From Candidatus Hermodarchaeota archaeon (GTDB taxonomy: Archaea; Asgardarchaeota; Heimdallarchaeia; Hodarchaeales; Hodarchaeaceae), in NCBI GenBank assembly GCA_048886185.1, contig JBHLKY010000014.1, forward strand, positions 30,001 through 62,000: a stretch of DNA of 32,000 nucleotides, given 5' to 3'. Of the stretch, positions 29,917 to 31,795 are shown in pieces; within the stretch, counting starts at the first letter, position 1, and every line of letters begins with the position of its first letter. The notes below the pieces were generated by a model that was not told where the DNA came from, searched no databases, and worked only from the letters and a program-made list of their open reading frames with translations. The translations under genes were made by a program, and so were the position numbers.

Positions 29917-31026
29917 TTAGATTTTTAGCTTAAAGGATAAAATCTCTTTTAAATTTGTATCATTGAAATCCTCAAATGGCTGTAGAGAAACTGTTGTCTT
30001 AAATTGACAGCAAGCTTTTTTATCTAATTCTTTCATTTTAATTTCTTGACCATAATATCCTAGTTGAAGAGGCCTTAATATTGCCAAATTAATATTTTTT
30101 TCAAGGATTTTCAGAGCTTCTAACGACATAATTTCGTTGTTATAATTGAAACATGTTGGAGACACAATGGTTGAGACTTGATATTTGTTAGCAACTTTTT
30201 TACAAACCTGTTCACAATATATCTGACAGTATAAACACAAAGAAGAATGGTGTTTGAACAACGCTAAAAGCTCTTCTATGCGTACAATAGTTATGTCTTG
30301 ACTAAACAGCAATTGTATATGTTCTAGGAAATTTTCCTCAGATGTTTTTCCAGTTTTAAAAAAAATTGGGGTAATTTTAACTCCTCTTTTCTTCATTAAC
30401 CAAGCTGCTAATATTGAATTGAAGTTAGGCTTTAGTAAAGCAATCGCTGTGCCTTGAGATCGAGATGGTAAGCCATCCATCCCTTTATAAATATGTGAAT
30501 AGATAAAACATAATATCCCACTAATATCCAAGTGAATTTGAAATTTTGGCGCTTCAAGATCTACTTTGATTCCTTCCAACGGATAAGCTAAGATCTCAGC
30601 GCCAAGTTTACTGGCAATTTCTATTGAGGAGAATGGGTGAGACCCCTCACGACGAGCCCTTATAGCAAAACTAGTATAAGGTTGAATTATATTAATTGCT
30701 TCTGACTTTCCTGCAGAAAGTATGGAATTTTCTGTTGCTTCAACAACGAGCACGGGACTTACAGAAGACACTCCACTGATTGAGGTAACGATACTGAATG
30801 CAAGTTTATCAAGATCAATGCTCGATTCTGAATAGATGATTAATCGATTTCGATAATTAAGAATATTAAAGGTAAATATATGCCGAAAACGAGCTTTTAT
30901 ATTATGTTGAAGCTGGTCTATCATATATCGACGAGTCTGTCGGCTTTTTATCCCTAGTTCACCACCAATACGGATTAATAATACACGCTTGTTTATCAAG
31001 AAAGAGTATTTCGCGTTATATGCCAT
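29917..31026 (-). CDS. ThiI-like THUMP-domain protein with degenerate PP-loop
   Basis: IRIGGELGIKS, SFAIRARREGSHPFSS, VDLEAP (THUMP), then ALLKPNFNSILAAWLMKKRG where canonical ThiI has LLSGGIDSPVAAWLMMKRG. Confidence 0.8.
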   Translation of the reverse strand: MAYNAKYSFLINKRVLLIRIGGELGIKSRQTRRYMIDQLQHNIKARFRHIFTFNILNYRNRLIIYSESSIDLDKLAFSIVTSISGVSSVSPVLVVEATENSILSAGKSEAINIIQPYTSFAIRARREGSHPFSSIEIASKLGAEILAYPLEGIKVDLEAPKFQIHLDISGILCFIYSHIYKGMDGLPSRSQGTAIALLKPNFNSILAAWLMKKRGVKITPIFFKTGKTSEENFLEHIQLLFSQDITIVRIEELLALFKHHSSLCLYCQIYCEQVCKKVANKYQVSTIVSPTCFNYNNEIMSLEALKILEKNINLAILRPLQLGYYGQEIKMKELDKKACCQFKTTVSLQPFEDFNDTNLKEILSFKLKI

Positions 31027-31124
31027 ATTGATGCCTTACTTGAAGACCAGTCTTATTATGATGCAAAGAGCTTAGATTCTCTACAAACCTATACTTCAAA
31101 GGATTCTTAACCTCAAGACAGCTA

Positions 31125-31188
31125 GCGAATCAGAGTAACTATAAGATTTCATTGCTTAGCTCATCCTTGTCAGGTTTCATCATTTCGC
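31125..31188 (-). ncRNA. Dual-guide C/D box sRNA
   Basis: GCGAA-ATGATGA (C, 31183-31177)-AACCTGACAAGG-ATGA (D', 31164-31161)-GCTAAGCA-ATGAAAT (degenerate C')-CTTATAGTTACT-CTGA (D, 31133-31130)-TTCGC. 5-bp terminal stem; both guides are complementary to conserved LSU rRNA sequence. Confidence 0.88.
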
Positions 31189-31212
31189 AGCCGTGGAATC
31201 AGAATATAGGAT

Positions 31213-31638
31213 TTAAAGCTCTTCATCTAGCTCCTCGTCTTCTTCTTCAGTGAGCTCTTGGGAGGCCCGTATTAATTCTGCAGCATTAAATTGTTGTTCA
31301 AATCTCCGCCAAACTGCTGGTTTTAATTTTTCATTAAGGCTTTTAATTTCCTTTTCTACTACCTTTTTAGCTTTTTCACGATCTTCAGGTAACTCTGTGA
31401 AACCCCATGTTGAAGCAGGGGGAGCTTTTGGATCTTTTTTTATTAAATATACAGAATTTTCTTGTTGTTGAAACGAAAAAAATTCAGGTTGAACAAGGGG
31501 GCAATCAATATATCTACATGTTCCTGTAACAGTAAAGAGATGATTGCAGCGCTTTTTCGGAGATGTGGCAGCCGATTTATAGGCACATTGCCCATTTGCG
31601 AGGTATCTCCAGGTGGGGATTAACTGAGATGATTCCAT
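31213..31638 (-). CDS. mak16: Mak16 / eL28-family ribosome biogenesis protein homologue
   Basis: W....NGQCAYK...CNHLFTVTGTCRYIDCPL matches eukaryotic Mak16 (W..IN..FCS.K...CRNEYNVTGLC.R.SCPL), plus VYLIKK, TWG.TELP and an acidic tail. Confidence 0.85.
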   Translation of the reverse strand: MESSQLIPTWRYLANGQCAYKSAATSPKKRCNHLFTVTGTCRYIDCPLVQPEFFSFQQQENSVYLIKKDPKAPPASTWGFTELPEDREKAKKVVEKEIKSLNEKLKPAVWRRFEQQFNAAELIRASQELTEEEDEELDEEL

Positions 31639-31691: not shown

Positions 31692-31795
31692 AGCCGCTGG
31701 TGGGATTTTCATACATGATTCATCAGGATCCTATATCTTGAACCCACGACCAACAGATTACAAGTCTGTCGCTCTACCAACTAAGCCACAGCGGC
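31692..31795 (-). tRNA. tRNA-Thr(UGU) with 31-nt non-canonical intron at 59/60 (31706-31736)
   Basis: Acceptor GCCGCTG/CAGCGGC, discriminator U73, anticodon arm ACAGA-CTTGTAA-TCTGT, T stem GTGGG/CCCAC. Removing the insert restores a 73-nt tRNA with T-loop TTCAAGT. Confidence 0.93.

Follow-up and report, generated by a model that had tools for sequence, protein, structure and literature searches.

A double-guide box C/D sRNA of a Hodarchaeales genus, predicted to target helices 69 and 71 of the large-subunit rRNA

Does the short spacer behind a Mak16-like gene of a Hodarchaeales genome encode a guide RNA for the large-subunit (LSU) rRNA, and how would such an RNA relate to those known from other archaea and from eukaryotes? 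The question comes from an initial annotation of the window (the whole analysed stretch of 32,000 nucleotides from contig JBHLKY010000014.1 of Candidatus Hermodarchaeota archaeon), in which a dual-guide box C/D sRNA with complete C/D architecture was proposed, lying 24 nt downstream of mak16 on the same strand and aimed at two LSU rRNA sites also methylated in yeast. When the minus strand is read from 31188 to 31125, a 64-nt box C/D sRNA is found in the order, 5' to 3', GCGAA, AUGAUGA (C box), AACCUGACAAGG (D' guide), AUGA (D' box), GCUAAGCA, AUGAAAU (C' box), CUUAUAGUUACU (D guide), CUGA (D box) and UUCGC. Its parts and its two neighbours have the following positions.

31125 to 31188, minus strand: sRNA core, 64 nt; homologues in 22/22 genomes of the genus; 97.8 bits with covariance model R1
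31184 to 31194, minus strand: 5' strand of the terminal stem, GCGAA (31188..31184), with an optional extension ACGGCU (31194..31189); from the minimum free energy (MFE) fold
31177 to 31183, minus strand: C box AUGAUGA, canonical RUGAUGA; UGAUGA invariant in 22/22 homologues
31165 to 31176, minus strand: D' guide AACCUGACAAGG; partner CCUUGUCAGGU in LSU rRNA (helix 71), 11 Watson-Crick bp with same-genus LSU
31161 to 31164, minus strand: D' box, variant AUGA (consensus CUGA); AUGA or UUGA in 20/22 homologues, shifted or GAAA in 2
31160 to 31153, minus strand: 8-nt loop GCUAAGCA between D' and C'
31146 to 31152, minus strand: C' box, variant AUGAAAU (consensus RUGAUGA); AUGA invariant, last three positions variable
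31134 to 31145, minus strand: D guide CUUAUAGUUACU; partner AGUAACUAUAA in LSU rRNA (helix 69 loop), 11 Watson-Crick bp with same-genus LSU
31130 to 31133, minus strand: D box CUGA, canonical; invariant in 22/22 homologues
31118 to 31129, minus strand: 3' strand of the terminal stem, UUCGC (31129..31125), with a bulged U (31124) and the extension AGCUGU (31123..31118); from the fold and the flank duplexes
31213 to 31638, minus strand: upstream neighbour, Mak16/ribosomal L28e-like protein of 141 aa (PF01778, 34.7 bits)
29917 to 31026, minus strand: downstream neighbour, ThiI/THUMP-domain protein of 369 aa (PF22025, PF02926, PF02568)

As can be seen in this list, the C and D boxes, two guides of 12 nt and a terminal stem are all present, in agreement with the dual-guide assignment. 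Both guide spacers, C to D' and C' to D, measure 12 nt, the archaeal C/D criterion being around 10–12 nt, and in the MFE fold the 5-bp terminal stem can be extended to 11 bp with one bulge through pairing of 31194..31184 with 31129..31118. The architecture called complete is canonical for C, D and the stem, but of the consensus the variant internal boxes, D' and C', retain just the UGA core. In these boxes the GA dinucleotides for the sheared pairs are present and other positions depart from the consensus, the UGA cores being found in 20 of the 22 homologues. The D' region of two congeners (G016 and G001) has the sequence GUGAAAGC, with the GA displaced by 2 nt. Elsewhere the D' box is the canonical CUGA in Lokiarchaeial relatives and CAGA, CCGA or AGGA in others. 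No open reading frame of 40 or more amino acids was found overlapping the sRNA, and the gap between the stop codon of the Mak16-like gene and the sRNA is exactly the 24 nt initially reported, on the same strand.

The pairing of both guides with rRNA was then the central point. Neither LSU nor SSU rRNA was found in the host assembly (96% complete, 75 contigs), and because of this the pairing was assessed with the LSU rRNAs of congeners, which in G005, G016 and contig C38 of G001 read GGGAGUAACUAUAACUCUC...CCUUGUCAGGUAAGUUCUGAC. In these three same-genus LSU rRNAs, standing in for the one missing from the host assembly, the D guide forms 11 contiguous Watson-Crick bp with AGUAACUAUAA, and the D' guide forms another 11 with CCUUGUCAGGU, a complementarity of fewer than 9–10 bp having been named beforehand as evidence against the proposal. 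The D guide is thus antisense to the helix 69 loop, as the initial annotation had it. The complementarity of the D' guide to the region around 1941–1951 of the E. coli 23S rRNA also stands, but not the G.U pair that was supposed to be part of it, which is unneeded because the genus has an A where E. coli has G1948; an A-U pair, matched by the guide, takes the place of the E. coli G-C pair in helix 71.

For both guides the N+5 position falls inside the duplex and is Watson-Crick paired. That of the D guide is the second A of GUAAC, corresponding to A1913 of E. coli (helix 69 loop) and A2256 of yeast, and that of the D' guide is the G of CCUUG, corresponding to G1945 of E. coli (5' strand of helix 71) and G2288 of yeast, so the two nucleotides that the +5 rule had been expected to reach are indeed the ones reached. 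The two predicted sites are 32 nt apart in the genus LSU, as they are in fungi. The E. coli numbering is consistent with the E. coli line in Additional file 3 of Dennis et al. 2015 (PMC4644070), and the 343-nt offset from E. coli to yeast fits the A2252-U2264 pair described in yeast H69 (PMC5699541). The yeast equivalences of the initial annotation agree with published data, Am2256 being guided by snR63 and Gm2288 by snR75 (PMC5199042; PMC5699541), and conservation in humans is indicated for the two of them (PMC5699541).

During the comparison of LSU rRNAs, several deviating sequences were seen around these helices. Contig C57 of G001 (L001/L083) carries a complete LSU whose helix 69/71 region, GGGGGUAACUAUGACCC...CCUUGUCGCUUAAUUGGCGAC, is unlike the genus type found on C38 of the same bin. 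This LSU was discarded as a genus rRNA: its helix 71 (CCUUGUCGCUUAA) mismatches the guide of its own bin, while C38 fits it, and because of this C57 is probably foreign, a probable contamination. In the LSU of G144:C87 (L082/L084) a 30-nt insert lies between helix 69 and UAAGGUAGC, that of G028:C99 (L004) has a different sequence at the expected place of helix 69, and in G404:C8 (L152/L153) around 570 nt separate the helix 69 and helix 71 pieces. Such insertions beside the guide targets in Asgard and Thermoproteota LSU rRNAs could represent introns or expansion segments of the rRNA at a methylation hotspot.

Conservation of the sRNA was analyzed within the genus. Homologues with 79–98% identity were detected in all 21 other genomes, which makes 22/22 with the host. 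In the 22 genomes no change is seen in the UGAUGA of box C, in ACCUGACAAG (D' guide), in UUAUAGUUACU (D guide) or in the D box, so that the lack of conservation of boxes or guides in relatives, proposed earlier as a sign against the sRNA, is the opposite of what was observed for boxes C and D and for the guide cores. Across the same genus, the identity of the two neighbouring proteins goes down to 56% and 43%. The terminal stem, present in all 22 homologues, differs in sequence between species and keeps its pairing: the flank duplexes, calculated per genome, have a mean energy of -12.0 kcal/mol for cognate flanks, compared with -7.3 for non-cognate and -4.7 for shuffled ones. The duplexes were calculated sequence by sequence because register shifts spoil the ungapped alignment, from which RNAalifold did not recover the terminal stem, pair counts there being moderate (61.9% of cells paired).

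The neighbourhood is equally constant, with the Mak16-like gene, the sRNA and the ThiI-like gene in this order on one strand in 22/22 genomes, and with 20–35 nt from the stop codon of the Mak16-like gene to the stem of the sRNA across the genus. Mak16 is a factor of ribosome biogenesis in eukaryotes, and in the whole genus its homologue (L28e family) keeps its place beside a predicted guide for rRNA modification. Syntenic copies beside mak16, which had been suggested as a check in other Asgard genomes, are therefore present throughout the genus, but no Mak16 synteny was found outside it. Many of the genus copies have a T-run after the 3' strand of the stem, and no conserved TATA-like box or promoter was seen upstream of the sRNA across the genus. 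The constant arrangement suggests that the Mak16-like gene and the sRNA form one transcription unit, and, given that no promoter is conserved across the genus, transcription is probably by read-through from the Mak16-like gene, or coupled to it. Among the sequencing runs listed, all were of DNA from sediment metagenomes and none was of RNA. Further upstream, on the minus strand at 31795..31692, lies a gene for tRNA-Thr(UGU) whose T-loop contains an insert of 31 nt (31737..31707). ARAGORN misses this gene and the Rfam tRNA model covers only its 5' part (29.0 bits), but once the insert is removed in silico ARAGORN reports a 73-nt tRNA-Thr(TGT). The insert holds a C-box-like CUGAUGAA.

Comparison with Rfam at gathering thresholds gave no family over the sRNA. 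Below threshold, 15 of the 16 matches on the stretch belong to CD-box families, all on the minus strand, the best being snoR442 with 18.1 bits (threshold 50) and SNORD41 with 18.0 (threshold 41); SNORD46 has 11.3 (threshold 40). The weak matches to SNORD46 and to the plant snoR442 span the D guide and the D box, and neither SNORD15 nor snR75 appeared among the Rfam matches up to E = 10. The Infernal check that had been advised thus failed to name a family, but its weak matches do point to the CD-box class. Since no Rfam family reaches its threshold, sRNAs with this pair of targets in helices 69 and 71 (H69/H71) are likely to be overlooked in the annotation of Asgard genomes. The H69/H71 family is cleanly recovered by the covariance model and by an exact pattern.

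This exact pattern, in which the C and D boxes enclose the guide cores GRCAAR (D') and KAGUUAC (D), was searched in 185,579 species with one genome each. It gave 61 matches, 57 archaeal and 4 bacterial. A purine, left unspecified in the pattern, precedes UGAUGA in 54 of the 57 archaeal matches and in none of the 4 bacterial ones, and most of the archaeal matches have flanks able to pair. On the Asgard side the matches carry, according to the labels of the metagenome-assembled genomes (MAGs), the names Hodarchaeota, Heimdallarchaeota, Promethearchaeota/Promethearchaeia, Thorarchaeota, Njordarchaeota and Baldrarchaeum, and the other archaeal matches are from Desulfurococcales, Ignisphaera and Sulfolobaceae. 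No Euryarchaeota appeared among the exact-pattern matches in the 185,579 species genomes, having in mind that the pattern misses degenerate copies, such as that of G019, and that a non-match is not taken as absence. In 400 Asgard genomes the pattern, with gaps set to include the 35-nt gap of the genus itself, was found in 38 genomes belonging to 8 of 85 genera, and the backwards control gave 1 match. The initial annotation had presented one Asgard guide that covers two sites assigned to separate snoRNAs in yeast; both sites are covered, but the arrangement is not specific to Asgard archaea, as the same D'/D pair occurs in Desulfurococcales, Ignisphaera and Sulfolobaceae.

Within the class, covariance model R1 was run on 83 genomes and recovered the genus, the copy of G019 (37.4 bits) and one doubtful match, in a search whose first-look filter scores few candidates. 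The G019 copy (L061:1501-1582), from a sister family of the same order, is a diverged sRNA with GAUGAUUGA in the C box region and AUGA as D box; its D' guide has one change, CCAGACAAG compared with CCUGACAAG, and the LSU rRNA is not in the G019 assembly. Inside the genus, a second C/D-like element was seen in G012 (C82:444-504, L064, minus strand), which ends in AUGAUAGUUACA-CUGA with a D guide of the helix 69 type and has an unrelated 5' half. This element may be a paralogue or a chance match.

In 15 pairs of an sRNA and the LSU rRNA of its own genome, from at least 8 lineages, the D' guide places N+5 on one and the same G throughout, and the D guide places it on one and the same A in 14 pairs. 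The remaining pair is from a Thermoproteota MAG whose D guide forms only around 7 bp with helix 69. The guides follow the changes of the rRNA in each lineage, both in helix 71 (GUCAGGU, GUCUAGU, GCCGGGU, GCCGGAU or GCCGGAC) and in helix 69 (CUAUAA, CUAUGA or CUCUGA). This co-variation of guide and rRNA is the strongest evidence for the predicted functional pairing. The double-guide sRNAs of the different lineages have the same box order and register, and their sequences outside boxes and guides are not alignable. The shared order and register, and the restriction of the exact-pattern matches to Asgard archaea and Thermoproteota, speak for common descent rather than convergence, but given the non-alignable sequences and the patchy occurrence under the exact pattern among Asgard genomes, we regard common descent as a candidate origin of the double guides only.

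Two explanations without any guide function were weighed against these data. One is that short motifs stand together by chance in an AT-rich spacer; in its favour, C and D boxes are short, and 50 candidates were obtained when the genome was scanned for RUGAUGA and CUGA with a stem in the flanks. Of these, however, only this sRNA has two 11-bp guides, and the reversed-genome control of the scan produced 0 candidates of that kind. For 12-mers sampled from the window, p = 0.0019 was obtained for at least 11 contiguous Watson-Crick bp with the genus rRNAs, and from this per-guide value the joint chance of two 11-bp guides is around 4e-6. With the element kept in 22/22 congeners together with a covarying stem, and recurring across phyla, we give chance practically no credit. 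The other explanation is a kink-turn in the 3' UTR of the Mak16-like mRNA, a regulatory element bound by L7Ae in which the complementarity to rRNA would be incidental. The position 24 nt past the stop codon with no conserved promoter between would suit it, and L7Ae binding to kink-turns of archaeal mRNAs has been proposed (PMC5539422). Such an element would leave unexplained that the guides are the most strongly conserved parts and co-vary with the rRNA; moreover, the linkage to Mak16 is found in this genus only and the same double guide lies in unrelated contexts elsewhere, so that we regard the UTR element as very unlikely. In the genome-wide scan, the sole other box-plus-stem candidate with rRNA complementarity was G000:C27:19273-19342 (plus strand, outside the window), with 9 bp to LSU rRNA per guide and a weak D' box, AGAG.

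The host has the proteins for a guide RNA. The genes for fibrillarin (PF01269, 263 bits) and Nop5 (PF01798, 224 bits) are adjacent on contig C8, and genes of the L7Ae family are present, with PF01248 at 92 bits on C3. We consider it highly probable from the sequence comparisons that the element is a working C/D sRNP that would bind helices 69 and 71 of the nascent LSU rRNA and methylate the A1913 and G1945 equivalents, and we infer its transcription, RNP assembly and 2'-O-methylation at both sites. In the proposed mechanism, the terminal stem would bring C and D together into a kink-turn and C'/D' would form a k-loop, on which the host-encoded L7Ae, Nop5 and fibrillarin would assemble. The helix 69 loop would be bound by the D guide and, 32 nt further downstream, helix 71 would be bound on its 5' strand by the D' guide. 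In each duplex, fibrillarin would then 2'-O-methylate the rRNA nucleotide that faces the fifth guide nucleotide upstream of the D or D' box. With its two binding sites so close together in domain IV, the RNP would probably act also as a transient folding clamp or chaperone on this domain at the subunit interface.

The two predicted methylations do not deserve the same trust. The D-guided A1913-equivalent site is the safer prediction, and methylation guided by D' is less certain because of the variant internal boxes and of the 2-nt shift of the D' GA in two congeners. It can be thought that only one guide is catalytic, in such a way that D would methylate the A1913 equivalent and D' would only anchor or chaperone helix 71, or would direct a shifted site in some species. 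This possibility is favoured by D' and C' boxes that read AUGA and AUGAAAU instead of CUGA and RUGAUGA, by the D' region GUGAAAGC of G016 and G001 that moves the GA by 2 nt, and by reports of guide pairings conserved without methylation and of chaperoning by close double guides (PMC6009581; PMC7994747). By contrast, the internal UGA cores are found in 20/22 homologues, the C to D' spacer is exactly 12 nt, and N+5 always falls on the same Watson-Crick-paired G across very different D' boxes, CUGA among them. A constant N+5 despite differing D' boxes is what is expected of a catalytic guide and is unneeded for an anchor, so we hold a single catalytic guide to be unlikely, and that both guides direct methylation is the preferred reading.

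Is this type of sRNA new? It is a further example of an already known double-guide type, as the H69/H71 pair was catalogued in 2015 as IHOsR91 of Ignicoccus. IHOsR91 of Ignicoccus hospitalis (Dennis et al. 2015, BMC Genomics 16:632, PMC4644070, Additional files 1 and 3) shares the architecture, both targets and their order. Its D' guide UAACUCGGCAAG(C) precedes CCGA and has N+5 on the G1945 equivalent, and its D guide AUCAGAGUUACG precedes CUGA and has N+5 on the A1913 equivalent. The authors marked I91 in both the helix 69 and the helix 71 alignment blocks and backed it by RNA-seq reads (PMC4644070). It differs in coming from a hyperthermophilic crenarchaeon, in guides that fit a GC-rich rRNA (CUUGCCGGGU, GUAACUCUGA), in its internal boxes and in having no Mak16 neighbour. 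As nothing is alignable beyond boxes and guides, homology to IHOsR91 rests on the shared arrangement. A partial relative is Sac-sR113 of Sulfolobus acidocaldarius (PMC4644070), whose D guide CUCAGAGUUACU stands before CUGA in the shared register, so that its N+5 is the A1913 equivalent; in helix 69 this sRNA carries the mark S113. Its D' guide CAUAAAAUAG, however, is without a match to helix 71. The full double guide is carried by one Sulfolobaceae genome found in the global scan (L124).

The region in question, helices 68–71 of the 23S rRNA, has been described as an archaeal methylation hotspot with dense prediction around helix 69 (Dennis 2015, PMC4644070; Lui 2018), and around 45% of Pyrobaculum sRNAs have two target sites within 100 nt (Dennis 2015/Lui 2018). 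Archaeal guides have been described as fast-evolving, with few exact sites common to different orders (PMC7994747; PMC6009581). Compared with the general guides of the hotspot, whose exact sites are rarely kept between orders, the H69/H71 pair is kept across Asgard archaea and Thermoproteota.

As to eukaryotes, snR63/U46 (SNORD46) and snR75/U15 (SNORD15) address the same two nucleotides, Am2256 and Gm2288, 32 nt apart as in the genus, but they are two separate, longer and mostly intron-encoded snoRNAs, with one guide each for these sites. The Neurospora homologue of snR63/U46 uses its D box for the A site, and that of snR75/U15 uses its D' box for the G site (PMC2780460). The box usage is common to the archaeal double guide and these Neurospora homologues, a coincidence with a probability of around 1 in 4 by chance. 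No homology to eukaryotic snoRNAs was detected beyond the guide, the 11.3-bit SNORD46 match consisting of the D guide and the D box. The idea of a candidate ancestral snoRNA, put forward in the initial annotation, thus receives modest support from the deep conservation and the matching box usage, but it is still a hypothesis. In its explicit form, the double guide would have been present in the common ancestor of Asgard archaea and Thermoproteota and inherited by the archaeal ancestor of eukaryotes, where it would have been duplicated and subfunctionalised, one copy keeping the D guide as snR63/U46 and the other the D' guide as snR75/U15; we advance this only tentatively, as a possible course of events and not the probable one.

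The Hodarchaeales are the archaea nearest to eukaryotes in recent phylogenies. The same two targets and the same box order are kept from Sulfolobaceae and Desulfurococcales to Hodarchaeales despite the fast evolution of guides, which makes this sRNA a candidate for tracing the change from double guides to single-site snoRNAs. It offers a testable case that the ribose methylations of the intersubunit bridge in helices 69 and 71 are older than eukaryotes, and, if the proposed descent were true, it would be one of the very rare lineages of guide RNA that can be followed from archaea into eukaryotes.
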